Shown: piece after piece, positions 1,025-22,985 of the stretch | How the letters are laid out: each line of letters opens with the position of its first letter | How positions within the stretch are numbered: the stretch's first letter is position 1 | Origin: Leptolyngbyaceae cyanobacterium | Lineage (GTDB): Bacteria; Cyanobacteriota; Cyanobacteriia; Phormidesmidales; Phormidesmidaceae | Assembly: GCA_965263355.1 (NCBI GenBank) | Contig: CBDHHL010000026.1 | Span: 1-64,000, forward strand | Direction: 5' to 3' | Length of the DNA stretch: 64,000 nt | Notes under the pieces: model-generated | Database searches by the model: none | The model's input: the letters and a program-made list of their open reading frames with translations, nothing else | Told to the model about the DNA's origin: nothing | Position numbers and translations under genes: made by a program

Positions 1025-1070
1025 CCTTGGGGTAGTAGGGGTCGTGGGTTCAAATCCCGCCGCTCCGATT
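1025..1070 (+). repeat. att site: 3' half of tRNA-Pro(GGG), copy 1
   Basis: CCTTGGGGTAGTAGGGGTCGTGGGTTCAAATCCCGCCGCTCCGATT gives anticodon loop TTGGGGT, T-arm GGTTCAAATCC and the acceptor 3' strand; no tRNA 5' half upstream. Confidence 0.9.
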
Positions 1071-2800: not shown

Positions 2801-2917
2801 CCCCACAGCCAAAGAACAAGCTGCTGACTCAGGACCAGTAGACCCACAGTTGCGTGCTTTTCTGAGAGAGGATGCCGCGATCATGGCAGGGTTAAATCCT
2901 TTTATCAATGACTTGAC

Positions 2918-3304
2918 GTGAAGCCTCCTCAGACCAGAGTACCGATATCAGTAGACCGCAAAACGGCAGAGCAAATTGCGGGAACGGCTGTGCTGCTATT
3001 GGAGCGATTTTGTGCGCATCAGCCCAGGGGACAGCGAGTATTTGAAGGGAAGCAATTTTATACGATTGTGGAGCGGGGTCGGAATTTAAATATTGAGTTT
3101 AAGGGGGATACAAAGCATCTGCCAGAGACAATTTTGACGCTGCGAACTCAGCAACAGAATGGACAGAGATTTTATCAAGTAGAAGCCTGGTTGACGCGGG
3201 AGGATTTACAGCGGTTTAGATTAATTCGCAGAGAGATATTAAAAGACATGAAGAGTATTGTCATGAACTCCGAGCACAACAATAAGCTTGAATTAGGCAA
3301 GTAA
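2918..3304 (+). CDS. Hypothetical protein (mobile-element type)
   Basis: 128-aa ORF; its GTG start overlaps the TGA of an upstream frame cut by ISAs1. Confidence 0.55.
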   Translation: MKPPQTRVPISVDRKTAEQIAGTAVLLLERFCAHQPRGQRVFEGKQFYTIVERGRNLNIEFKGDTKHLPETILTLRTQQQNGQRFYQVEAWLTREDLQRFRLIRREILKDMKSIVMNSEHNNKLELGK

Positions 3305-3567: not shown

Positions 3568-6500
3568 ATGCTTAGATCTTTGAAAGTTGCAAAAGTCCAC
3601 CTTCCACGTGTTCAACTAGCCTACCAGCAAAAATTTTCAACGCAACTGAAACTAGCAGAGACCTTAAAACTATCTCGTCAGACGGTCAGCAGTTTTCTTA
3701 ATGGGAGGCCAGTTGATCGACTTAATTTTATTGAGATTAGTGGACAATTGAATATGGACTGGAAATCCATTGCCGAGTTTAAGTCTTCTCAAGTAGACAC
3801 AGATGAGATGCCGGATTGTCCACACTTTTATGGGCGTTCGCATGAGCTACAGCAATTAAGAACATGGATCTTTCAAGATAAATGCCGTTTAATTGCTGTT
3901 TTAGGCATGGGTGGCATTGGAAAAACAGTCCTTACAGGCAAATTTGTAGAGGAGATAGTAGATGATTTTGATTACATTATTTGGCGTAATCTTCACGAAG
4001 CAGCACCAATCAAAGATTTTTTAATTGATATCATTCGATTTCTCGCTAAAAAAGAAGAGGTCAATAAAATCAATACTGAAACCTCTTCTGCACTCATAAT
4101 GCAATTAATCAAATACTTGAGAAGCAATCGATGTTTGATTGTTTTAGATAATGCCGAGACAATTTTACGACAAGGAAACAACGCTGGCAATTTTGCTGAA
4201 GATTATGAGGAATATGGCAAATTGCTCAGAAGAGTAGGCGAAATACCTCACAATAGTTGTTTTCTTGTAACAAGCCGTGAAAAGCCTCTAATTATTCAAG
4301 CTAATGAAGGTAAAAGATCACCTGTTCATTCGTTGCAGCTTGGTGGATTAAGTGAAGAAGATGGAGCACATCTCCTAGCGGATAAAGGATTAACATTTGA
4401 CCAATCATCTTTACTTGTTAAAAAGTTAATCCATAATTGCTCTGGCAATCCTTTAATGTTGAAGATTGTGGCCTCAACAATCGAAATAGCTTTTAGTGGT
4501 AGCATTGAAAATTTCTTAAATGAAGGAACACTTGTTTCCAATGGTGTTAATGACTTAATTAATCAGCAATTTAGTCGTTTAACTAATCTTGAGAAAGAAA
4601 TAATGTATTGGTTTGTAATTGAGCAAGAACCTGTTTCAATCGCTGAAATCCAAAAATACAATTTGTGTAGATTTTCGATATCAGAAATACAAGAATCTAT
4701 CAAGTCTCTTCTACATAGATCCCTCATTGAAAGCCATACTCCTTTACTTTTTACATTACAACCAGTCATCATGGAGTATGTGACGAATGGGTTAATTGAA
4801 GACATCTTCCAAGAAATAAGATACGAAGAGCTGAATATATTAAAAACTCACTCTCTTATTAAAGCCCAAACTAAGGATTATCTAAGAGAAAAACAAGTCA
4901 GAATAATTTTAAATCCAATTCTTGAAAAGCTCCTCAGCTTTTTCGATAATTCACGCAACTTACATAACCATCTACATCAAATGTTAGATAAGCTGCGCCA
5001 AAGTTCTTCCACAGATCTAGGCTATACCTGTGGCAATATTTTAAACTTACTGTGTCATTCAGGAGCAGAACTAACCAACTATAACTTGTCAAAACTGACG
5101 ATTCGTCAAGCTTACTTTCAAGGTAAAGAGCTACGAAATGTTGACTTTTCACAATCTGAAATCGTTGATTCAGTTTTTACCGAAACACTTGAAACTATCT
5201 TATCACTATCATTTAGCCCAGATTCAGAATTTTTAGCTACAGCAGATGCTAATGGTGAGATATGTCTATGGCATGTTGGAACAGGGAAACGCCATTTAGT
5301 TTGCAAAGGTCATACTGATTGGGTGAGATCTGTTTCCTTTAGTCCAGATGGATTAACGTTGGTAAGTGGCAGTGGAGATAAGACTATTAAGTTATGGGAT
5401 TCTAGAACTGGACATTGCCAATTAACTTTTAAGGGGCATTCAGAAAGGATACGATCAGTTAAGTTTAGCCCTGATGGAAAATTTATAATCAGTGGTGGAC
5501 TTGATAGGAGCGTAAGAATTTGGGATGTAAAAACAGGCCAGTGTATTAGAAATTTTCTAGATCATTCTAATTCTATTCGCTCAGTAGTATTTAGCCCTGA
5601 TGGTCAGTTCATTGCAAGCAGTGGGGAAGATCAAATAATCAAGATTAGGGAAATCAAAACAGGTACTATAGTAAGGGCTCTTACAGGACATCAGAAATCT
5701 GTTCGCTCAATAGCGTTTAGTCCAGATGGAAAATTATTGGCTAGTAGCAGTACAGACAAAACAGTTAGAATTTGGGATTATCAATCAGGAATATGTCTCA
5801 AAGTATTAGAAGGTCACGAAGATGGTGTCAGACTTGTAAGATTTAGTCCAGACAGCAGTTCAATTGCAAGCAGTAGTGATGACAAAACAGTCAGGATCTG
5901 GGATATTTCTACCGGAGAATGTGTCAATATTCTCCAAGGGCATACACATTGGGTAAGATGTATTGCTTTTTCTCCTAACGGGCATATTCTTGCTAGTGGG
6001 GGGGCTGACAGAATGGTAAAGCTTTGGGATACAAAAACTGGCCAATGTATCCGAACTCTCAGAGGCTATACAAATTGGATTCGTTCTGTAGTTTTTAGTC
6101 CTGATGGAGAAGTCTTAGCGAGTGGTAATGCAGATCAGCAGGTCAGACTATGGAATACCCGAACAGGCAAGCTTATTAGAACAGTATCTGTACTAAGCGG
6201 ATGGGTTCAATCTGTTGCATATAGTCCAGATGGAAAGCTTTTAGCAACTGGTAGTAGCGATCCAGTAATCAAACTTTGTAACTTGACAAGTAATACTTGC
6301 CAGCCATTGAAAGGGCACCGAAATAGAGTAATGTCTGTGGCCTTTAGTCCAGATGGTTATACACTTGCAAGTGGTAGTGATGACTGTACAATTAGACTTT
6401 GGAACGTCTCAACAAGTGAATGTCTAGAAATACTGGAAGGTCATTCAGATAGAGTTAATTCCGTAAGTTTTAGTCCTGATAGTTGCTTGATAGCTAGTGC

Positions 6501-7089
6501 TAGTGAAGATGAAACAATCGCTATATGGGATGTAAGGACTGGTGTACAAATAGCTTCTCTCAAGGGGCATTATAATCGTGTCCGAACTGTGGCATTTAGC
6601 TGTGATGGAAAAATCATCGCTAGCGGAGGCAGCGATAAAACTATCAAGCTTTGGGATACAACTACAAATGAATGTATTCGTACGTTAGAAGGCCATACTC
6701 ATCAAATTCGATCACTCTCATTTAGCCCAAACAAAAACCTTTTAGTGAGTGCCAGTAGTGACAAAACCTTAAAGGTTTGGGACATTGTGACCGGCGAATG
6801 TAAAAGGACTTATCTAGCACATAATAATGTAGTCTGTTCTGTTGCTTGTGATCCAAGCGGGCGGCTAATAGCAAGCGGTAGTCGAGATGGGACAATCTGT
6901 CTTTGGTCGGTTGACCAAAACACCTTATTGAAAGTTATGAAATCTGATAGGCCTTACGAAGGGATAAGGATTTCACAAACAACTGGTTTGACTGACGCTG
7001 AGAAGGCATCACTTGAAACATTAGGTGCATTAACCGATCCAGAACCTAGCATGCTATTTCGCTACGAAGAAATACAGCAGCCTGAATAG
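3568..7089 (+). CDS. HTH + NB-ARC (STAND NTPase) + WD40 repeat protein
   Basis: N-terminal XRE-like HTH, Walker A GMGGIGKT, Walker B LIVLDNAE, VTSRE, GNPL, then about 14 GH...SPDG...WD repeats. Confidence 0.95.
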   Translation: MLRSLKVAKVHLPRVQLAYQQKFSTQLKLAETLKLSRQTVSSFLNGRPVDRLNFIEISGQLNMDWKSIAEFKSSQVDTDEMPDCPHFYGRSHELQQLRTWIFQDKCRLIAVLGMGGIGKTVLTGKFVEEIVDDFDYIIWRNLHEAAPIKDFLIDIIRFLAKKEEVNKINTETSSALIMQLIKYLRSNRCLIVLDNAETILRQGNNAGNFAEDYEEYGKLLRRVGEIPHNSCFLVTSREKPLIIQANEGKRSPVHSLQLGGLSEEDGAHLLADKGLTFDQSSLLVKKLIHNCSGNPLMLKIVASTIEIAFSGSIENFLNEGTLVSNGVNDLINQQFSRLTNLEKEIMYWFVIEQEPVSIAEIQKYNLCRFSISEIQESIKSLLHRSLIESHTPLLFTLQPVIMEYVTNGLIEDIFQEIRYEELNILKTHSLIKAQTKDYLREKQVRIILNPILEKLLSFFDNSRNLHNHLHQMLDKLRQSSSTDLGYTCGNILNLLCHSGAELTNYNLSKLTIRQAYFQGKELRNVDFSQSEIVDSVFTETLETILSLSFSPDSEFLATADANGEICLWHVGTGKRHLVCKGHTDWVRSVSFSPDGLTLVSGSGDKTIKLWDSRTGHCQLTFKGHSERIRSVKFSPDGKFIISGGLDRSVRIWDVKTGQCIRNFLDHSNSIRSVVFSPDGQFIASSGEDQIIKIREIKTGTIVRALTGHQKSVRSIAFSPDGKLLASSSTDKTVRIWDYQSGICLKVLEGHEDGVRLVRFSPDSSSIASSSDDKTVRIWDISTGECVNILQGHTHWVRCIAFSPNGHILASGGADRMVKLWDTKTGQCIRTLRGYTNWIRSVVFSPDGEVLASGNADQQVRLWNTRTGKLIRTVSVLSGWVQSVAYSPDGKLLATGSSDPVIKLCNLTSNTCQPLKGHRNRVMSVAFSPDGYTLASGSDDCTIRLWNVSTSECLEILEGHSDRVNSVSFSPDSCLIASASEDETIAIWDVRTGVQIASLKGHYNRVRTVAFSCDGKIIASGGSDKTIKLWDTTTNECIRTLEGHTHQIRSLSFSPNKNLLVSASSDKTLKVWDIVTGECKRTYLAHNNVVCSVACDPSGRLIASGSRDGTICLWSVDQNTLLKVMKSDRPYEGIRISQTTGLTDAEKASLETLGALTDPEPSMLFRYEEIQQPE

Positions 7090-7156
7090 GTAACAAGGTT
7101 CAACAATTCTAAACACTTTACAACTGTTCTACCCTCTCTTTCAGGTAGAGAAGACT

Positions 7157-7902
7157 ATGATCTCGAATTCCCAGAAGCTTAGTTACAAAGCAAGAAATCT
7201 TCTTGAAAGCGAGCAAAATGCTTTGCTGAGCCAAGTACGATGGTTCATTGCGCCTTACTTACACTCAATGAAATTGGCAAGAGAGCAGATTGAGCAACAA
7301 AACTTAGAAGATTTAAAAGTTAGCCTTAATACCATCGAGCAAGCAATTTCAAACTCCGAGGGTTGGCCAAAATTTGGCGTCAAGTTTGACTCAAAAGCAG
7401 GCATTGTAATTACTAAAACTTCTGCTGCAAAAACCATTTCCAAATTACTGCTTTGCCAATACTATTGGAACACAAAAGGTTTATCTTGGAACGTATAAAA
7501 TTCCTAAGTAGTGAAGAGAAGATTGAAACGCTTAAAGACTTAATCCAAAATGTTGGAAATGAAAACATTAGAGAAAAAATAGAGCAAGAAGTTGATAACT
7601 TAGCTCTTGAAAACCGAAGAGCGGAAGAACAAATTCTCGAGGTTAAAGATATACAATACGAAACACAGCTAGACTTTCGGAATCAGCTCGCCGAGCTAAA
7701 AGTGTTTAAGGAAAAATCCAAAATTTGGTTAGCATTTCTCAATAGAGAACCTGCCGCAACAATTTTAGGGGCATTGCTGCTTATTGTTTTTGGCATTTCG
7801 CTTATTATGTTTGTCTTTATTGAAAAGACTATCCCAGATATAATCAGCGGTACTTTTTTCACTATCTTAGGTTACTTTTTCGGACAGTCATCAAATAAAT
7901 GA
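7157..7902 (+). pseudogene. Frameshifted membrane protein (two C-terminal TM helices)
   Basis: ORFs 7157-7498 and 7453-7902 overlap and join if one base is added at the A-run near 7429-7433 (...HFQITALPILLEHKRFILERI); ends ILGYFFGQSSNK. Confidence 0.6.
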
Positions 7903-7943: not shown

Positions 7944-8150
7944 TTAGTGGTCCTTATCTTCATTTTCATCAACAGGGAATTTTTTCTGTTTCTCAGCTTC
8001 CCGCACTGCCGTCTCAATAATGTAAGCTGCCAAATTTGCTGTGGGTCGTCCTTCATGGTCGGCCCATTTCTCTAGTAGCTCAGCCACCGCATCCGGCAGG
8101 GTTACATTAATCCGCTTGCTCACGCTTTGCCCTTGCATCAACTCGTACAT
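7944..8150 (-). CDS. Ribbon-helix-helix (CopG-like) regulator
   Basis: SKRINVTLPDAVAELLEKWADHEGRPTANLAAYIIE, the cyanobacterial RHH pattern; divergent from the ParM operon. Confidence 0.85.
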   Translation of the reverse strand: MYELMQGQSVSKRINVTLPDAVAELLEKWADHEGRPTANLAAYIIETAVREAEKQKKFPVDENEDKDH

Positions 8151-8244
8151 CAGTCTATCCCCTTACATCGCTTTAGACGCGACTCGTATTTCATTACACC
8201 TATTGCGTATCTTATTAGATGTAAATATGATGTAATCAGATGCA
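8146..8244. promoter_or_regulatory. Putative RHH operator or centromere-like boxes
   Basis: GATGTA/GATGCA direct repeats at 8218, 8229, 8239 and inverted TACATC at 8146 and 8164 in the divergent intergenic region. Confidence 0.4.
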
Positions 8245-8353
8245 GGCACGTCAAAACGATCCATATTTCGTACTTGCCCTGCCAGTCAGGACTTGACCTT
8301 GTAAGCAACCGTCAAGCCTGCTCGCACATCACTTTAAGGAGGCATTGACCTTT

Positions 8354-9355
8354 ATGAAACTTGCCATTGAGCGTGCCGAAACCAGCACGCAACCCGTCAC
8401 CCAAACGCCCAATAGCGTCCTTACCTATCGCCGCTTTGCCTTTGATGGAGGTAACCGCTTCATCAAATGGGTTAGCCCAGACCATCAGCCCCGCTGCATT
8501 CCCTCTTACATCAAACCCCTGGAAGATTGGGAAGATGCCTTGCCAGACTCGAATACCGTGATTATCGAGTCCAACGGTATCCGCTACGTGATCGGTCAGG
8601 TCGCCCAAGAATTGAAGGGTAAGCCCACCTACCAGCACAGCAAAGCCAACCTGGCCCAAAAGCTATTTCTTGCTGCCCTGGAGCCAACGGAAGATCGCAC
8701 CCACATCTTGATTGACACCCTGGTCGTCACCACCCCCGATACCCGCGATCAGCAGGCCGTAAAACGGTTAACCGCCTTGCAGGGACTGCACCAGTTCAAA
8801 CGCAATGGTGTGGAAATTGCCGCCAAGATCAACCGGGTGGAGGTGGTCGATGAATGCCTCAGCGCCTGGCGCTATGCCTGGAATCAGGGCCTGTTTAGCT
8901 ATCACCGCAAAAACGCCGTGCTGGATCTCGGCGGCGGGACAGCCCTGGCACGAGTGATTCTGCCCAATGGTCTGATTGACCGGGCCGCTGATGTCAAACT
9001 GCCTGGGACCTTTGACCTGGCCAATAAAATTGCCGCTGCCCTCAAGGCCCGCTCCGAATATAGTCCCGATTTGGGGCTAATTATGGATGCCATTGCCACC
9101 GGCACCTTCACCATTGGTCCGCGCCAGAGCTTTGCCGGACTGTTCGAGCGCTGTCGTCAGGACTGGCTAGCGGATATTCAAGCCACCCTGCGAGAAACCT
9201 GGGTCAAGCAAGCTGCCGAAATTGGCGAAGTTCTAATTGTCGGTGGGTCGGCTACCCTGGCCACGGCCCTGGCCGAAACCAGCAATGGACGGTTCAAGAT
9301 TCCTGAGCAACCCAGCCCCCAACTGATCAGCCTCTATGGACTGCTGGAGGACTAA
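8354..9355 (+). CDS. ParM/StbA-like actin ATPase
   Basis: Actin-fold motifs FDGGNRFIK, VVDE, VLDLGGGT, LIVGGSA; AGGAGG upstream. Confidence 0.85.
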   Translation: MKLAIERAETSTQPVTQTPNSVLTYRRFAFDGGNRFIKWVSPDHQPRCIPSYIKPLEDWEDALPDSNTVIIESNGIRYVIGQVAQELKGKPTYQHSKANLAQKLFLAALEPTEDRTHILIDTLVVTTPDTRDQQAVKRLTALQGLHQFKRNGVEIAAKINRVEVVDECLSAWRYAWNQGLFSYHRKNAVLDLGGGTALARVILPNGLIDRAADVKLPGTFDLANKIAAALKARSEYSPDLGLIMDAIATGTFTIGPRQSFAGLFERCRQDWLADIQATLRETWVKQAAEIGEVLIVGGSATLATALAETSNGRFKIPEQPSPQLISLYGLLED

Positions 9356-9358
9356 GCC

Positions 9359-9628
9359 ATGGCGCAAGCACGGATTGTCCTGCGGGAAGAGCATCTCACC
9401 ATTGCCAACGATCTGAAAGAAAACACTCGGCTGGGCAGCCTGACCGAAGTGGTGGGAGTGCTCTTAACCCGCTACGGACGACACCTGAAGGCCACCTGGG
9501 AGCTGGAGCCCAGCGCTGACACCATGGCTGAGGTGACCCCAACACCAACTGTCCAGCCCGTCACCCTTTCAGAACAGTCCACCCCTCCAAGGGATCCGGG
9601 CACTCATCTAGCTCCCCTCTGGTCCTGA
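9359..9628 (+). CDS. Small ParR-like/DNA-binding partner (putative)
   Basis: 89 aa, 3 bp after parM; beta-helix-helix-like N-terminus and low-complexity Pro/Thr tail. Confidence 0.55.
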   Translation: MAQARIVLREEHLTIANDLKENTRLGSLTEVVGVLLTRYGRHLKATWELEPSADTMAEVTPTPTVQPVTLSEQSTPPRDPGTHLAPLWS

Positions 9629-9699
9629 TATCTCTCTTATTACCTACCTCAATAGGTTCCTGAATCTCCATGCCATCCACCCCAGGGAGGTTACCCACG

Positions 9700-9825
9700 A
9701 TGAAATTTGCACTGGGCGCAATCTTGTTACTCCTTGTTGTAATTGCCGCCAACTCATCCTCTATCTCCAAACCTGACCCACTCCACCGCGCTGGCGAGGT
9801 CCCCCAGCGATTAACAACTCCGTAA
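9700..9825 (+). CDS. 41-aa hydrophobic peptide (signal/TM); not in the ORF track
   Basis: GGGAGG RBS, then MKFALGAILLLLVVIAANSSSISKPDPLHRAGEVPQRLTTP*. Confidence 0.6.
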   Translation: MKFALGAILLLLVVIAANSSSISKPDPLHRAGEVPQRLTTP

Positions 9826-9888
9826 ACTAACCAGACTCAAACTCTCTTCTATCCCTGCAGATCCTTACCCCAATTCCCAATATGAACC

Positions 9889-10383
9889 ATGACACATTTA
9901 GCAAGACGTCCAAACACCATGCCTGTCCTAGCGGGTGACATCATTCACCCCACCCAGCTCGACACCGAACGGCAACAGCTGTTCTATGACGTGTTTAATC
10001 TCATCCCTCAGCCCTACCAAACCGCCCAGATGGTGGCGGATATCTGCCAGGGGCTGGCCCAACATCGAGAACAGGAACTGTGTGCCCTGAGCAGCCAGTT
10101 CCAAGGACTGCAACAACAGCAGGCGCAGCAGATGAACCACCACATGGCAACGCTGCAACAGATGTTGTTGGCTCAGCAACAAGCCCATCAAGATCTCCTG
10201 AGTCAGCTGGCCCAGCAACAGTTCAACATGCCGCCGCCCCCGCCGCTGATACCCACCATCAACCTGACCGTAGATAACAAAGTTGAAGCGACAGCTGGGG
10301 GAGACTCCACCAATGGGTTTCTAGCCATTTTCTTCGCTGTGCTCACAGTGCTGTGTATTGGCCTTATCACCGAAGGGGACTAA
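9889..10383 (+). CDS. Gln-rich coiled-coil protein with C-terminal TM anchor
   Basis: Q-rich helix, PPPPP linker, FLAIFFAVLTVLCIGLI. Confidence 0.75.
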   Translation: MTHLARRPNTMPVLAGDIIHPTQLDTERQQLFYDVFNLIPQPYQTAQMVADICQGLAQHREQELCALSSQFQGLQQQQAQQMNHHMATLQQMLLAQQQAHQDLLSQLAQQQFNMPPPPPLIPTINLTVDNKVEATAGGDSTNGFLAIFFAVLTVLCIGLITEGD

Positions 10384-10387
10384 CACC

Positions 10388-10897
10388 ATGAGTTTTAACG
10401 AACTAAAGCGACTAATCTCCACCATGCAACCGCCGGTCCAGGGTGCCGGAACCTCAACCCCGATGCCGGGCATCAAAAACTTTAATCTGGGCAAATCCTC
10501 TGGCGATGAACTACTGGCAGCCGTAGGCTTTGCCGGTCTCCTTGCCACTGCGGGCCTTTTCCTGGCTCCACGCCTGGTACCAGGGATGGACCATCTCGTG
10601 TTTTTCGGCTGGACTGTTGCTGTTGCAACTTTACTCAAATTCTGCTCCGAATGGCCTAATCCCAAGCCCCTAACCACCGCCAGCTTTACCCTTTGGGTCG
10701 CTCTTCTGCTGGAGAATCTCAACTATTTCCCCATGTGGAAGACCGGCTTACTGGTGCCCCTGGTGGCCACCGCCTGGTGGATTTTTAACGATCTCTTCCG
10801 CGATGGTAATGGCAAAGTCGCCTGGTGTACCCGCTTTGCCCTGGGGGCCTTTGGCGCAGTCGGCCTGCACTGGCTAATCACCGGCTCACTGGTTTAG
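10388..10897 (+). CDS. Multi-pass membrane protein
   Basis: 4-5 hydrophobic segments; ATG 4 bp after the previous stop. Confidence 0.75.
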   Translation: MSFNELKRLISTMQPPVQGAGTSTPMPGIKNFNLGKSSGDELLAAVGFAGLLATAGLFLAPRLVPGMDHLVFFGWTVAVATLLKFCSEWPNPKPLTTASFTLWVALLLENLNYFPMWKTGLLVPLVATAWWIFNDLFRDGNGKVAWCTRFALGAFGAVGLHWLITGSLV

Positions 10898-10970
10898 GCC
10901 AGTCCCTACCCCCATTATCAGGCGACTGCTTCCGGGTAGTCGCCCTTTGCCATGTTTAGAGGAAGTCACC

Positions 10971-12608
10971 ATGTCCCCCGCACAGTTCCAACGATTCAAG
11001 CAATTTTGTGCGATCGCAAACCAATACACCCAAGAATATCCCCAGGAATTTCAGGGCGTCTCCGGGCAGCAGATCTGGCGTGACCTGATTCAGGTGGCGA
11101 TGGCTTTGGGAGTGGTGAGCAATCGCCAGGAATTTGAAACCGGCTGGAATGTCCTGATGGCAGAGGAAGCATTCAACCTACCTGCCTATGAACCCAATCA
11201 AGGAACTGCCCCTGAAGCTACCCAAACAGAACCGTTACCCGAAGGCATGGGCTGCCAAATCGTCTCGGTACTCAAGGCCTTTCGGGTACAGGTGGATTAT
11301 CTGGGGGAAGTAGCAGGACCAACCTACACCCGACACCAGCTCAAGCCACGCTTGGGGGTGAAGGTATCAGCCATCTCTGCTCTGGCCACTGACCTGAAAG
11401 TTCATCTGGGGTTAGACGCCGTGCCAATTATCTCGGCCCAGTCAGGCAGTGTGGCCCTGGACGTACCGCGTCCGGATCGGCAGTTTGTCCTGTTTGAGGA
11501 TTATGTACAGTCAGAGTTGCGATCGTCGCCCCCCTCAAAAATCACCCTGGCCTTAGGCGTGGGTCTAGATGGCACCCTGCGAGAAGTGGATATCTCCGAT
11601 GCCAACAGTTGCCATTTGCTCGTGGGCGGCACCACAGGCGGCGGCAAATCTGGCGTCATTCGGGCCATGCTCTACAGCCTATTCTGGCGCTATTCCCCAG
11701 CCCTGGCCAAAGTACTACTGATCAGCATCAAACGCTCTGAGTTTCCAGACTTTCAGAATATTCCCTGGCTCTATGGACCAGTAGTGTCAGAAGCCACCGA
11801 AGCAGTCTATGCCCTGGAACATCTGTGTCAGGTCATGGACCATCGCGATCGAGTGCTGGCCGCTGCCCGCTGCAAAGATATCGATGTGTACAACCAAAAG
11901 CATCCGGCTAAACCCATGCCACGTTTACTCGCCGTATTTGATGAGCTGGCAGATTGCATGTGCGTCCTACCTGCCAAGGTCTCAAAGGAGGAATCGGAAC
12001 TACCCACCAGCAAACGGTTAGAAACAGCCATGGTACGGATTGCCCAGAAAGCCCGCTCCACTGGCATCCACCTCATCGTGGCCACCCAAAGACCTGAAGC
12101 GTCAGTCCTCACCCCGCTAATTCGTTCCAACCTCCCAGGAAGGATCGCATTACGTACCAAAACAGACGCAGACAGTCGCATGATTTTCGGCAATGACAAC
12201 GGATCAGCCGTAAACCTTCTGGGAAAAGGGGATTGCTTTCTAGCAACAACGGAAACAGAGCGGTTGCAGGCATTACATGTAAACCAGACGTTGATTGATC
12301 GGTTCTCTGACAAATATGTGGATTCTGTGGAGCCTGCAAGGCCCTGGGGGTTGGCAGCGGTACTTGAAAAAGTAGCCTCTGGGCGGACTGACGACCCATT
12401 GTCAGCAATTGTCAATTATCTGACCGAGCAAGGTGGACAGTCCACACAGCGAGAGATTCAGCGCAATGCATTGACTCAACGCTATAACGCTGAAGAAGTA
12501 GGAGCATTTCTCAAGCAGCTTGAGGGCTTGGGTCGGCTCGCATTGTCCAGGGACGGCAAAAGCACCCTAGTCAAGCTGTCAAAACCAGACAATGACAATG
12601 GACAGTGA
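10971..12608 (+). CDS. FtsK/SpoIIIE-family DNA translocase (soluble, C-terminal winged-helix-like domain)
   Basis: FtsK alpha domain (GPTYTRHQLKPRLGVKVSAI), Walker A GGTTGGGKS, Walker B AVFDELAD, KARSTGIHLIVATQRP, LLGKGD; GAGGA RBS before ATG 10971; no N-terminal TM region. Confidence 0.9.
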   Translation: MSPAQFQRFKQFCAIANQYTQEYPQEFQGVSGQQIWRDLIQVAMALGVVSNRQEFETGWNVLMAEEAFNLPAYEPNQGTAPEATQTEPLPEGMGCQIVSVLKAFRVQVDYLGEVAGPTYTRHQLKPRLGVKVSAISALATDLKVHLGLDAVPIISAQSGSVALDVPRPDRQFVLFEDYVQSELRSSPPSKITLALGVGLDGTLREVDISDANSCHLLVGGTTGGGKSGVIRAMLYSLFWRYSPALAKVLLISIKRSEFPDFQNIPWLYGPVVSEATEAVYALEHLCQVMDHRDRVLAAARCKDIDVYNQKHPAKPMPRLLAVFDELADCMCVLPAKVSKEESELPTSKRLETAMVRIAQKARSTGIHLIVATQRPEASVLTPLIRSNLPGRIALRTKTDADSRMIFGNDNGSAVNLLGKGDCFLATTETERLQALHVNQTLIDRFSDKYVDSVEPARPWGLAAVLEKVASGRTDDPLSAIVNYLTEQGGQSTQREIQRNALTQRYNAEEVGAFLKQLEGLGRLALSRDGKSTLVKLSKPDNDNGQ

Positions 12609-12610
12609 AC

Positions 12611-13668
12611 CCGTGAATATTTTGGCAGACAGATCGGCCCTCTGGGCCATCGATCTTAGCCTTCAACCGGGTAACTATCAGGCATTCCTAAGTGAGTGAA
12701 CTTATTGAGAATAGAACATTCCAACAGTAATTCTGTCGTTTGATTTTCAATACACCGTGCAGACACCTCACCTGTGAAAATAGTTTTGATTCGATACATC
12801 GCCGTTTCGCTCAGAGACCGTCGATGATAATTAATCTCTTCTTTCCAGGCGGAACGCCCCTGTTTACGAATCGCTCGTAAGTTTTCATCCCGTGGATGAG
12901 GATCCTGCTTGCGGTTGCCATGAAACCAAATCTTGGCATCTTTGCGAGGCGGTATCGCAGCCGTGGCGTCTCGCTCATCAATGGCATCGTAGCAATAGGT
13001 CCGGTCGTATGCCCCATCGGCGCTGACTTGGTCAATGTCGTCTGGGATTTGGTCGAGGAGGTCTGGCAATATTTCTCCATCACTAATGGCGTTTGAGGTC
13101 ACCACTGCCGCTAAGATCTCCCCTGTTTGCTCATCCACACCCAAATGCAGTTTGAGCCAAGTGCGTCGTTTACTCACTCCATGCTGACGGGTTTTCCATT
13201 CGCCTTCTCCATACACTTTAATCCCCGTACTATCGATCACCACATGACGTCCCCCAGTGGTGGGTTTCGTCGGTAAATCAATCGATAAGGTCTGTTGTCG
13301 ACGCGATAGGGTTGTATGCACCGGTAAGGCTACCGATACCCCCATCAACTCAAAGATAGATCCCGCAAAGCCGATGGTTTGACGCAACGCCAATCCATAG
13401 ATCACTTTCAACGTTAGTAATGTCTCAATAGCTAAATCGCTATACGTCTTAGACGCCCCTGGTTTACCTGTCTTTTGAGTATTTTCCCACGCTGCTATCA
13501 CCTCATCGCTGAGCCATAGGGTCAGGCTTCCTCGCTTGACCAAGGCAGCGTTATACTCAGACCAGTTGCGGAGTTTGTAAGTGCGTTTCATCGGTACCGT
13601 GTTTGTGTGGTAACTACACTTTACCGGCTCTTACGGCTCCGTAACTTCCTGATTCACGCACCAATCGG
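12611..13668 (-). mobile_element. IS5-family (IS903-group-like) element, ends approximate
   Basis: Upstream end reads TTGGTGCGTGAATC on the minus strand; the other end keeps only CGTGAAT. Confidence 0.7.
12656..13591 (-). CDS. IS5-family transposase
   Basis: NWSEYNAALVKRGSLTLW, IDSTGIKVYGEGEW, WLKLHLGVD, SADGAYD, YHRRSLSETAMYRIK. Confidence 0.95.
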   Translation of the reverse strand: MKRTYKLRNWSEYNAALVKRGSLTLWLSDEVIAAWENTQKTGKPGASKTYSDLAIETLLTLKVIYGLALRQTIGFAGSIFELMGVSVALPVHTTLSRRQQTLSIDLPTKPTTGGRHVVIDSTGIKVYGEGEWKTRQHGVSKRRTWLKLHLGVDEQTGEILAAVVTSNAISDGEILPDLLDQIPDDIDQVSADGAYDRTYCYDAIDERDATAAIPPRKDAKIWFHGNRKQDPHPRDENLRAIRKQGRSAWKEEINYHRRSLSETAMYRIKTIFTGEVSARCIENQTTELLLECSILNKFTHLGMPDSYPVEG

Positions 13669-17774: not shown

Positions 17775-20378
17775 TTAATCTTCATCGTTTGAAGTATCCA
17801 AAGAATGATTTGTTTTGCTTTGCCCCTTTAATAAAGGCATTCGCTCTAAGATTTGAGTTATTAGCTCAACAAAATCCTTTGAGGATATCTTGTCCTCTTG
17901 CATAAATTGTGAAATTCGAATAAAACCAAATATCAGCAATGTCCCAATGATGATAAATGGAAGTATTGGAGATTTAACAAAGCCGCTCACAACTGTCAAA
18001 ATAGCGACAATAGCTGCTAGCATAAACAGATCGAAAAATCTGGATGGCCAACCATTGGTCGTTCCACGGGGTGAATTAGGCCTCGAAATTCGAGGTGGCA
18101 CAAGTAGCCGTTCACCTTTTCGAATTTCGAGACGTTCTTCCCTACCTTGAGGTGTTTCGATACCTGTTAGCAAGTCTTCTACCCGCACCATCTTTCGGGT
18201 TCCAGAAGGCATGAACTCTTGTATGCCTTCCGCTTCCATGTCAAGCAGGTGGGTGTAATCTACTAGTACATTAGGATTACTAGGCAACGGAACTTTTTCT
18301 TCGACCTCAATACCAGGAATGCTGCAGTGGATATAATCAAACTGGTCACGGATACTTTCGAGCAGGATGCGACGATCAATGAGAGTGCCTTTAGGGGGAC
18401 TTTTGACCCAAACAAAAATCTTACGGTCTTCTTTGTCAGCTTTAACTAGGGCTTTGGTTCCCCCTCTCACCAGCACTACCCCGTTACGCCAGTAGGTACG
18501 TTTCGAGATGAGATGATTCATACGTACTATGAAGCGGGAGATAATGCTACTAGGGAGAATATTGTAATGGTACTGGAAAGGTAGTGCTTCTTCCCAGTTT
18601 CCTGTTTCAGATTCTTCTTTGCTAAGCAGGTCGGGCAACAGATAACGATGGTCATCTTCGTATCCTTCTAGAGGAAAGCACAGCTCAAACTTCCGCATAA
18701 TGTTGAGAATGAACAAGTGCTTTTCAATAGGATACCGATGGGCATCCAGGATACGGCGAAGCATAGAGCGTCTCAGGATGCCCTTATGTTGAGTCATGAG
18801 AGCGTTGTCGTTAAGGATAGAATAAACGCCGTCGGTTACCCACTGGGGGTTAAGCACACTATCTTGTTGGAGCCGAGGATCGTCCCGGAAGTTGAGGACA
18901 ATGCCCAGGTCATGCAAAAAACTAATCAGAATCTTCTGACTCTGGTCATCATTCACCTTCTGACTTGCACAGATTTGCTGGTACTGATGATACTCGATGT
19001 AATCAACATCCAGTTGTTCGAGCTGGGTTTTCACAGAAAACCAGGAATGGGGCAGGGTATCGAAGACGTGAGGCAGATCAGCAATTTGTTGCTGAATCTT
19101 TCGTTCCAGTTGCTTGATACCTCGGTGGGCAAAGTCACTGCAGGAAGTCTCGATGAATCCGACAATATTGGGATATTTGTTTTTCAACCCCCGACGATCG
19201 ATATCCAAAGGTTTTTGATCTACCTGATTGCCTACGACGATAATTGGGGAATCTCCGCCAAAGCTACGGATAATTTTGAGCCAGTATTCAATTCGGTTGG
19301 CAGTTTCGTCTTGACGAGCATTTAGCACCAATAGATAGAGACTGCGCTTGGTGAGAAAAAACTGATGGGTGGCATGCATGATTTCCTGGCCGCCAAAGTC
19401 CCATATATTGAGCTTAACAGTTTGGTTGTTTGCTTTGATTGGCCATTCAGTGATGTTGATTCCTTCAGTTATCCTTTCGTTCGCGTCAAATGTATTATCG
19501 ATCAGCCGCTTCACCAGCGAAGTCTTACCTACCTTTGCCTCTCCTACCAACAGCATCTTCGCCTCATTAAGTAGGCGCGACCTTTTTGCACAGTTCTGCA
19601 AGTAGTAGTTGATGATAGTGGCAGGGTCGAAGGCTTTTTCTAGGATTTCAGGTGGAATGGGCAAGGGATTCTTGCGGAGGTCCAGTTTTGACAGATCTTT
19701 CAGCTGACCAATTTCGGTAGGCAGATTGCCCAGTTGGGTCTTGCTCAGGTCGAGTTCTGATAGATTTTGAAGTTGGCCGATTTCGGCAGGCAAATTGCTC
19801 AGTTGGGTCTTGCTCAGGTCGAGTACTGATAGATTTTGAAGTTGACCGATTTCGGCAGGCAAACTGCTCAGTTGGGTCTCGCTGAGGTTGAGCCGAAATA
19901 GATTTTGAAGTTGGCCGATTTCAGCAGGCAAACTGCTCAGTTGGGTCTCGCTGAGGTCAAGTACTGATAGCTTTTGAAGTTGGACAATTTCGGCAGGCAG
20001 ACTGCTCAGTTGATTTGCGCTGAGGTCAAGTACTGATAGCTCCTGCAGCTGGCTAATTTCGGCAGGCAAACTGCTCAGTTGGTTCGCACCGAGGTTGAGC
20101 CGAGATAAATTTTGCAATTGACCGATTTCGGTGGGTAAGCTATCCAGCTGGTTTGCACTGAGGTCAAGTACTGACAGATTTTGAAGTTGGCCGATTTCGG
20201 CAGGCAGAGCCTTAAGTTTATTGCCCTTAAAAAGGCTTCCCAAAATTAATGTTTCAAGTTTAGTCAGACTACCGATTTCAGGTGGCAATTCTACAAGCTC
20301 ATTGCCCGATAAGTCCAATTCTGTTGCACCTTCGTTTGCGGCTTGCTCAATTACTCGCAATAGCTCATCTTGCGTCAT
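17775..20378 (-). CDS. Roco protein: LRR-Roc GTPase-COR with C-terminal TM helices
   Basis: 23-aa LRRs (LPAEIGQLQNLSVLDLS), GEAKVGKTS, WDFGGQ, NQVD, COR (LHDLGIVLNF, LNPQWVT, YWRNGV). Confidence 0.95.
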   Translation of the reverse strand: MTQDELLRVIEQAANEGATELDLSGNELVELPPEIGSLTKLETLILGSLFKGNKLKALPAEIGQLQNLSVLDLSANQLDSLPTEIGQLQNLSRLNLGANQLSSLPAEISQLQELSVLDLSANQLSSLPAEIVQLQKLSVLDLSETQLSSLPAEIGQLQNLFRLNLSETQLSSLPAEIGQLQNLSVLDLSKTQLSNLPAEIGQLQNLSELDLSKTQLGNLPTEIGQLKDLSKLDLRKNPLPIPPEILEKAFDPATIINYYLQNCAKRSRLLNEAKMLLVGEAKVGKTSLVKRLIDNTFDANERITEGINITEWPIKANNQTVKLNIWDFGGQEIMHATHQFFLTKRSLYLLVLNARQDETANRIEYWLKIIRSFGGDSPIIVVGNQVDQKPLDIDRRGLKNKYPNIVGFIETSCSDFAHRGIKQLERKIQQQIADLPHVFDTLPHSWFSVKTQLEQLDVDYIEYHQYQQICASQKVNDDQSQKILISFLHDLGIVLNFRDDPRLQQDSVLNPQWVTDGVYSILNDNALMTQHKGILRRSMLRRILDAHRYPIEKHLFILNIMRKFELCFPLEGYEDDHRYLLPDLLSKEESETGNWEEALPFQYHYNILPSSIISRFIVRMNHLISKRTYWRNGVVLVRGGTKALVKADKEDRKIFVWVKSPPKGTLIDRRILLESIRDQFDYIHCSIPGIEVEEKVPLPSNPNVLVDYTHLLDMEAEGIQEFMPSGTRKMVRVEDLLTGIETPQGREERLEIRKGERLLVPPRISRPNSPRGTTNGWPSRFFDLFMLAAIVAILTVVSGFVKSPILPFIIIGTLLIFGFIRISQFMQEDKISSKDFVELITQILERMPLLKGQSKTNHSLDTSNDED

Positions 20379-22939: not shown

Positions 22940-22985
22940 CCTTGGGGTAGTAGGGGGCGTGGGTTCAAATCCCGCCGCTCCGATT
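22940..22985 (+). repeat. att site: 3' half of tRNA-Pro(GGG), copy 2
   Basis: Identical to 1025-1070 except one T>G; followed by an AAACCTCT/GGGGGTTT hairpin. Confidence 0.9.

Follow-up and report, generated by a model that had tools for sequence, protein, structure and literature searches.

A ParM-headed operon with an FtsK-type motor on a cyanobacterial tRNA-Pro island: a candidate TraB-like module for DNA transfer

What might be the function of an operon that joins an actin-like ATPase with small membrane proteins and a DNA translocase of the FtsK type, as found in a Leptolyngbyaceae cyanobacterium (assembly GCA_965263355.1)? The operon occupies positions 7944 to 12608 of the stretch analysed, the first 64,000 nucleotides of contig CBDHHL010000026.1 (hereafter the window), and by gene order and profile matches it belongs, as one variant, to a module that is widespread on the plasmids and islands of cyanobacteria and has not been described. 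The reading favoured here, with a rough probability of 45%, is that it may be a lineage-specific module, similar to the TraB system of Streptomyces, for the relaxase-independent transfer or spreading of double-stranded DNA (dsDNA) by cyanobacterial plasmids and integrative elements. The layout of the module suggests an overlooked route for DNA between cyanobacterial cells. The data on which this reading is based are gene order, selection, folds, island boundaries, the layout of the family, relaxase-free carriers and, in relatives, the association of short repeat arrays with the ATPase genes. The features of the operon are as follows.

7944..8150, minus strand: divergent ribbon-helix-helix (RHH) regulator, RHH_5 (Pfam E 8e-20); homologues lie upstream of ParM in related loci
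8354..9355, plus strand: actin ATPase of the ParM type (ALP_N, E 2e-9), from a cyanobacterial clade carried on plasmids
9359..9628, plus strand: 89-residue ParM partner with RHH-like N-terminus and conserved hydrophobic tail; directly after ParM in relatives
9700..9825, plus strand: 41-residue membrane peptide with one hydrophobic helix; the least secure gene, under weak constraint
9889..10383, plus strand: 164-residue Q-rich tail-anchored protein, hydrophobic helix at residues 143-161
10388..10897, plus strand: 169-residue protein with about four hydrophobic (membrane) segments, in the place of the multi-pass protein of related operons
10971..12608, plus strand: FtsK-type DNA translocase with alpha and beta motor (FtsK alpha, E 4e-10; FtsK_SpoIIIE, E 5e-31)
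12577..12604, plus strand: GACA words, one inverted and three direct, overlapping the 3' end of ftsK; not significant in the array test described below and within background

The initial annotation had described a GC-richer, co-oriented operon with a divergent RHH regulator, and this description was borne out: all genes were recovered at the positions it gave, in agreement with the Pfam and GC data. The GC content of the operon is 54.9%, compared with 37.8% in the cargo to its left, 44.3% to its right and 47.6% in the rest of the window. Among the seven operon open reading frames (ORFs) Pfam identifies only RHH_5, ALP_N and FtsK alpha with FtsK_SpoIIIE. Comparison with three to four near-identical copies gave ratios of nonsynonymous to synonymous substitution (dN/dS) of 0.01-0.07 for ParM, for the 164- and 169-residue membrane genes and for the N-terminus and motor of FtsK, 0.13-0.30 for the 89-residue ORF and about 0.5 for the 41-residue peptide. 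The operon is genuine, and the low ratios show purifying selection on ParM, FtsK and the two larger membrane genes. The 89-residue partner is a probable ParR-like adaptor, to judge from its strand-helix-helix pattern; it has no Pfam match, and the top PDB match of its profile is CopG at E 0.9 only. For the 164-residue Q-rich protein no convincing homologue was found beyond the near-identical copies (weak matches in 6/351 genomes were unconvincing), and its pairwise comparison with look-alikes in loci L054 and L027 was not significant. A distant homologue of the 169-residue protein was not found by sequence searches including the ESM Atlas, which for the two larger membrane proteins returned leads below 0.9 or nothing. 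Complex prediction for the N-domain of FtsK and the two larger membrane proteins gave a score of 0.00, which has no bearing either way.

The FtsK of the window is composed of a 68-residue helical N-domain, a motor with intact Walker A and B motifs, arginine finger and glutamine sensor, and a C-terminal winged helix. That it lacks its own transmembrane region and ends in a winged-helix-like domain had been proposed from the letters alone, and both parts held, the tail being modelled as a winged helix with a predicted local distance difference test (pLDDT) value of 84 from a 16-row alignment. The best Foldseek matches of the tail are winged-helix proteins (template modelling score about 0.7), none of them reaching E 0.001, and the gamma domain is absent from the matches listed. 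The full model (pLDDT 70) retrieved FtsK first and TcpA next. A winged-helix profile built from relatives matches 5/5 of the Leptothoe-like orthologues of this FtsK, at E 2e-6 to 2e-3, whereas nuclease-FtsK proteins give no match at E <1; against PDB sequences it gave designed-helix noise only. Among copies, the gene varies most in its tail. An identification as chromosomal FtsK was rejected, the protein having no FtsK_4TM or gamma Pfam match and scoring 146 bits against 1566.

The nearest distant relatives of the motor are cyanobacterial fusions of an exonuclease and a PD-(D/E)XK nuclease with FtsK (43-49% identical, a sister clade), from which the window protein differs by the lack of a nuclease, a different N-domain, an added winged helix and its operon context. 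By tree and domain content, it is read as a replacement motor of nuclease-FtsK origin with a winged-helix tail. In a quick tree, built from a quick search only, the window motor and the nuclease-FtsK proteins stand apart from TraB, TcpA and the ATPases of related loci; the latter have no firm placement relative to TraB, because their branches are long and their support is 61. The fusions themselves form a large cyanobacterial (3'-5' exonuclease)-PD-(D/E)XK-FtsK family (P0126-P0240; L004:10969-13035) with motors that match the SspH and mad8 models, and they are possibly unstudied defence proteins.

A ParM profile search recovered at least 51 genome loci and four loci in a viral collection, and a metagenome scan added two loci, of which one was relevant. 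The usual order is a replicase and an RHH gene pointing away, ParM, a partner of 70-100 residues, small ORFs, two membrane proteins (one with a single helix, the other multi-pass) and finally a large ATPase, whose place is called the slot below. The expectation that the gene order would be conserved elsewhere was met for the RHH-ParM-partner head, which recurs, but not for the motor: in the other loci the slot holds a different FtsK-type ATPase, typically self-anchored and with weak Pfam matches only, which retains the Walker A and B motifs as well as an arginine/glutamine motif. The best PDB match of the slot-family profile is FtsK (E 6e-11), followed by HerA (3e-7), VirB4 (2e-6) and TrwB (6e-5), and its match probability with the alignment of the window FtsK is 97%. 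The slot ATPase begins within 5.5 kb of ParM in 29 of the 35 loci with at least 5.5 kb downstream, a count that is partly circular since the slot profile was built in part from those loci. The profile collects 103 clusters at E 1e-30 or better and matches 43/401 genomes sampled across the phylum. Domain typing of 146 representatives (the top 150 clusters minus four of more than 1000 residues) revealed an N-terminal hydrophobic helix in 122 and, by profiles, a C-terminal helix-turn-helix (HTH) domain in 76, namely 25 winged helices and 51 of a second HTH type.

Members of the slot family are carried by the complete plasmids pCC7120zeta (5.6 kb), pNOS7524.02 (6.4 kb), ABRG53g and pMIC7113.06, the remaining sizes being 12.6 and 28.8 kb. 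The 6.4-kb plasmid of Nostoc PCC 7524 is presumably pDU1. No relaxase or type IV secretion system (T4SS) is annotated on these plasmids in the PLSDB gene tables, which are incomplete, and the ATPase of pNOS7524.02 matched 12 records, duplicates and fragments included, all typed non-mobilizable. In pCC7120zeta and pNOS7524.02 the slot ATPase has no ParM ahead of it and follows small ORFs and a divergent RHH-like gene. Since ParM lies upstream in only 5/38 further ATPase loci, with up to about 5 kb in view, it is regarded as an optional head. Cell-wall hydrolases occur downstream of the slot ATPase in six scanned relatives; those of the M23, lysozyme, SLT or GH108 types were seen after the ParM operon in L008, L021, L025, L043, L044, L056 and L154.

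Copies of the operon that are 85-94% identical were found in genomes G001, G037, G047 and G107 and in locus L085, the homology ending at about 7991 and 12605; the closest named proteins belong to Leptothoe. In G037 tRNA-Pro repeats enclose about 61 kb, with an intact tRNA-Pro 14.7 kb beyond. The enclosed element contains a tyrosine integrase at its start, genes similar to the cyclic oligonucleotide-based antiphage signalling system (CBASS), a cI-like repressor, a DUF3987 primase-helicase, a second ParM block, the operon and more cargo. Tyrosine integrase, tRNA attachment (att) repeats and replicase are hallmarks of the actinomycete integrative and conjugative elements (AICEs), and the suggested linkage of the operon to integrases and tRNA att sites was indeed found, together with a primase-helicase, both here and in L044. 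An integrative and conjugative element of the T4SS type was rejected, as neither VirB4 nor a VirD4-type coupling protein nor a relaxase was found in the G037 element by Pfam and genome searches; the Pfam scan covered 28 proteins, ORFs below 100 residues and a few larger ones being excluded. Genome searches gave no TrwC and no TraG-D_C match inside it, and an AAA_10 search of G037, a model that may miss cyanobacterial VirB4, found nothing. At tRNA-Pro(GGG) in G037 (C5, 3037223-3113370) two elements, of about 61 kb and 14.7 kb, stand in tandem. The larger one carries trypsin-TPR cargo, a CBASS-like operon with QueC, SMODS and Cap17, and very large ORFs without annotation. An independent tRNA-Pro(GGG) element of Nodosilinea (L044:2439-15291) combines integrase, DUF3987 replicase, RHH, ParM, slot ATPase and an M23 peptidase.

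Short repeats of 6-8 bp, in both orientations and with a word that differs for each element, are clustered directly after winged-helix ATPase genes. The array test takes the best 6-mer count on both strands in the 250 nucleotides past the stop codon at p <0.01 against shuffles; it was fixed after the clusters had first been noticed and then applied to held-out sets, two loci being left out of the counts for short flanks. An array followed 9/17 winged-helix and 0/17 other-tail genes of the discovery set (two of the 17 typed by hand), 6/10 and 0/7 in the first held-out set (Fisher p 0.035) and 4/5 and 0/5 in the second (p 0.048), so that the held-out sets combined gave 10/15 for winged helices and 0/12 for the other tail type. 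Untyped genes were positive in 4/13 and 5/28 cases, and the positives end winged-helix-like by eye. The test was positive after traB of the Streptomyces plasmid pSG5 (CCCGGA five times, p 0.003) and negative after pIJ101 tra, pCW3 tcpA and one nuclease-FtsK gene; from the pIJ101 result, not every TraB-type gene would pass. In the window the native sequence downstream of ftsK is unreadable because of an IS5-family insertion 4 bp after the stop. The GACA words at the ftsK end are possibly a remnant of a cis array.

TraB resembles FtsK as a translocase; it recognises 8-bp repeats in clt and acts together with the Spd membrane proteins (PMC4447253, PMC12857230). Conjugation of dsDNA by an FtsK-type motor has been described for Actinobacteria (PMC3548315, PMC3158045, PMC12857230), and the first two of these papers report TraB homologues in Actinobacteria only. 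The full-text literature searched, outside which most subscription papers lie, contained no description of a ParM-membrane-FtsK module. The cyanobacterial systems share with TraB/Spd/clt of pSG5, pSVH1 and pIJ101, and with AICEs, a repressor gene that points away, genes for small and multi-pass membrane proteins, and an ATPase of the FtsK type that ends in a DNA-binding domain; in relatives short repeats follow directly, and a relaxase would not be needed. As in AICEs, the integrative form carries integrase and replicase. The pSG5 order, in which a divergent repressor is followed by small membrane genes and traB, is the same as the cyanobacterial layout, and the Spd-like membrane ORFs occupy the same position, without detectable homology to anything. 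The cyanobacterial system differs in phylum and envelope, in the use of an RHH rather than a GntR regulator, in the optional ParM head and in repeats of 6-8 bp in both orientations; its motors are not TraB orthologues by tree or hidden Markov model, and the window motor has neither an anchor nor a significant array. The proposal of an AICE/TraB analogue in the initial annotation thus stands for the layout, the att sites and the integrase and primase-helicase links, and falls for the motor. Judged by these comparisons, the window system is TraB-like by layout and not a TraB member, as it fails on orthology and anchor.

By analogy, the following mechanism could be envisaged. The divergent RHH protein would regulate the operon, as its position suggests, and the small and multi-pass membrane proteins would form a channel or scaffold, as the Spd proteins of Streptomyces do. 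A hexameric FtsK-type motor would load through its C-terminal winged helix on the short-repeat cluster just downstream and pump the excised circle across the envelope or septum, while ParM and its partner might position the element at the pump or pole. The hexamer and the activity of FtsK-type motors are taken from the family in general, the fold being what was modelled here. In the window lineage the usual anchored ATPase would have been replaced by a motor derived from nuclease-FtsK proteins with a winged helix. The entry of an unrelated FtsK motor into the slot and its gain of a winged helix argue that a DNA pump able to recognise a site is required there, but give no indication of the destination of the DNA.

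Several observations weigh against such a transfer module. The window FtsK has no N-terminal transmembrane segment or membrane anchor, and its tail reaches only E 0.12 on the relatives' winged-helix profile, which also matches winged helices of replicases. The kinship with TraB that a phylogeny might have revealed did not appear, the motor being sister to the nuclease-FtsK fusions in the quick tree (Shimodaira-Hasegawa-like approximate likelihood ratio test, SH-aLRT, 95), and it scores 40 bits on the NCBIfam plasmid_TraB model, for which the cut-off is 800. Among the loci found, a canonical FtsK fills the slot only in the near-identical Leptothoe-like copies. As to the arrays, control windows 300 nucleotides further on were positive in 6/67 and 3/38 cases, the loci are not independent (27 positives collapse to 18 after kinship), and elements with similar winged helices do not clearly have similar repeat words (rho 0.13, p 0.07). 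All five Leptothoe-like copies fail the 250-nucleotide test; in the window an insertion sequence (IS) masks the site. Of 40 plasmids matched by another slot-family member, 27 are typed mobilizable, 13 non-mobilizable and none conjugative, and in G047 a relaxase of the TrwC/MobF type lies at a distance of about 8 kb from the RHH gene. Moreover, cyanobacteria have an outer membrane, a barrier that TraB does not face.

It is tempting to speculate further, on balance against the odds, that these loci might represent a large, unrecognised cyanobacterial class of relaxase-free conjugation or intra-filament spreading similar to TraB/Spd/clt and including small Nostoc plasmids, in which anchored ATPases would read element-specific arrays through interchangeable HTH tails; the window would then show a grafted nuclease-FtsK motor that docks on separate membrane proteins. 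If true, this would explain how many plasmids typed non-mobilizable could spread and how every cell in a filament comes to receive a plasmid, and FtsK-driven dsDNA transfer would recur in multicellular bacteria with a second membrane. The proposal is directly testable, as the model strain Anabaena PCC 7120 has family members on its plasmids and Nostoc PCC 7524 has one on its 6.4-kb plasmid, and each array-bearing winged-helix member offers a predicted binding word.

An unlikely explanation, though one with some weight, is that the operon serves only stability and segregation, ParM and its partner providing partition and the FtsK motor clearing the closing septum or resolving multimers, with no transfer between cells. 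The textbook arrangement of ParMR systems is a ParM gene with an RHH-like partner behind it, as here and in type II ParMRC with the pSK41-type ParM (PDB 3js6), and related plasmids carry tyrosine recombinases. FtsK_SpoIIIE was found elsewhere in none of the G047 sequences and only weakly in G001 and in G077, which lacks the module, so the element might bring its own. Unlike ParMRC, the operon shows no parC-like repeat excess between RHH and parM (in this intergenic region, the only one examined, the best 7-mer count was 5, equalled by 4/30 shuffles), membrane genes and a translocase follow, and the operon often stands beside ParA: of five complete ParM-annotated plasmids, three also have an annotated ParA and one a ParA-like ATPase. 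The slot ATPase is also found without ParM, and several membrane genes and cell-wall hydrolases would be superfluous for partition. A chromosomal cyanobacterial ParMR turned to cell shape is described in bioRxiv 2025.06.27.661541 and PMC12645912, one of which notes two mostly plasmid-borne cyanobacterial ParM clades, one without known function; the main text of the former never mentions FtsK. This CorMR/FcmBC system was ruled out by its different context and is set apart by its description, being chromosomal, limited to Nostocales and Oscillatoriales, and a determinant of cell shape.

It is improbable that the ATPase is a coupling protein similar to TcpA of pCW3, which would hand relaxase-bound single-stranded DNA to a T4SS encoded at another place in the genome. 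In the structural comparison TcpA ranks directly behind FtsK, and it is likewise an FtsK-like motor on a mobile element. The MobF relaxase of G047, MOBP or MOBV relaxases on pNPUN05, pCAL6303.03 and pCC7120epsilon, and TrwC and VirD4-type genes elsewhere in the hosts would fit, and, as in mobilizable elements, a relaxase is linked in some copies. In contrast to TcpA, no VirB4 or mating-pair genes were found in the element, the motor has a winged-helix tail, tcpA was negative in the array test, and the ATPase persists without a relaxase, tiny plasmids with none annotated keeping it. G017 and G077 carry the relaxase block with the RHH gene, or part of it, and without the ParM-to-FtsK genes, and G037 carries the module without MobF, so the two are separable both ways. 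The absence of a relaxase from the island, stated in the initial annotation, accordingly holds for the window and the G037 element and is qualified by the missing left arm of the window and by G047. The block joined to MobF is a second ParM-like block with products of about 380, 167 and 128 residues (L087-L088 in G047, L096 in G017, L095 in G077), and two distinct actin ATPases, that of the second block and that of the operon, can coexist in one island.

There is a very small chance that the ATPase packages or extrudes the DNA of a membrane-containing or filamentous virus-like agent: the ParM head occurs on four IMG/VR contigs, small membrane ORFs adjoin an FtsK-HerA ATPase and a PHROG labelled terminase is weakly matched (E 5e-6), but 0/15 small or membrane proteins scanned match any PHROG, the best phage matches are FtsK morons and the main carriers are complete plasmids. 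That the operon defends against phages or plasmids, with a motor taken from nuclease-FtsK proteins, is remoter still, for the closest relatives of the motor, its matches to the FtsK parts of the SspH and mad8 models and the defence cargo in which the islands are rich are set against an operon without nuclease or other effector and a head and slot that match the plasmid backbone module beside the replicase.

To return to the candidate transfer module, its surroundings in the window comprise the following features.

1027..1068, plus strand: left att-like direct repeat, the 3' half of tRNA-Pro(GGG); an intact tRNA-Pro(GGG) with the same 3' end is present in G037 (L098) and in L044
1148..2801, minus strand: degenerate IS with DDE_Tnp_1_assoc transposase and 48-nucleotide inverted arms
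2802..3304, plus strand: remnant of the second block (ParM2-167 residues-128 residues), joined to the MobF relaxase in G047, G017 and G077, not in G037
3568..7902, plus strand: low-GC cargo, an NTPase-WD40 protein and two ORFs, which varies among copies
12612..13664, minus strand: IS5-family element, beginning 4 bp past the ftsK stop
22942..22983, plus strand: right att-like repeat, the 3' half of tRNA-Pro(GGG), preceded by a Uma2-gene arm common to G037, G107, G047 and L085

From these boundaries the island is read as a tRNA-Pro-integrated element with its left arm lost. The degenerate IS occupies the place of about 18 kb in G037, which there hold the integrase, the cI-like repressor, an excisionase-like ORF and the primase-helicase; only the end of the second ParM block is retained beside it, with no integrase and no replicase. 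As the integrase and primase arm is gone, the island can no longer excise or replicate itself. In other contigs compared, IS ends and further att copies are present, and the IS5 copy at 12612-13664 apparently lacks the outermost bases at both ends, unlike the copies there.

Some minor observations were made around the island and its relatives. A short piece similar to the 3' part of ftsK (L073:1300-1731) has an intact tRNA-Pro on one side and a truncated ParM2 on the other, and marks a further decayed relative at the same site. Beside the operon, Pepco with a caspase-iHD-CE-wHTH-HSP90 conflict system was seen at L005:195-5089 and L087:13566-18446, as one ORF in G047 and two in G001. To the left of the att repeat about six tandem units of 42 nucleotides (627-880), beside a short ORF that is TIR-like by eye, are probably the right end of a neighbouring tRNA-Pro element. 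Two aligned runs lack two bases at 7428, so that the overlapping ORFs of 113 and 149 residues at 7157-7902 may be a single gene with a frameshift. An LRR-Roc-COR protein is encoded as island cargo at 17775-20378.

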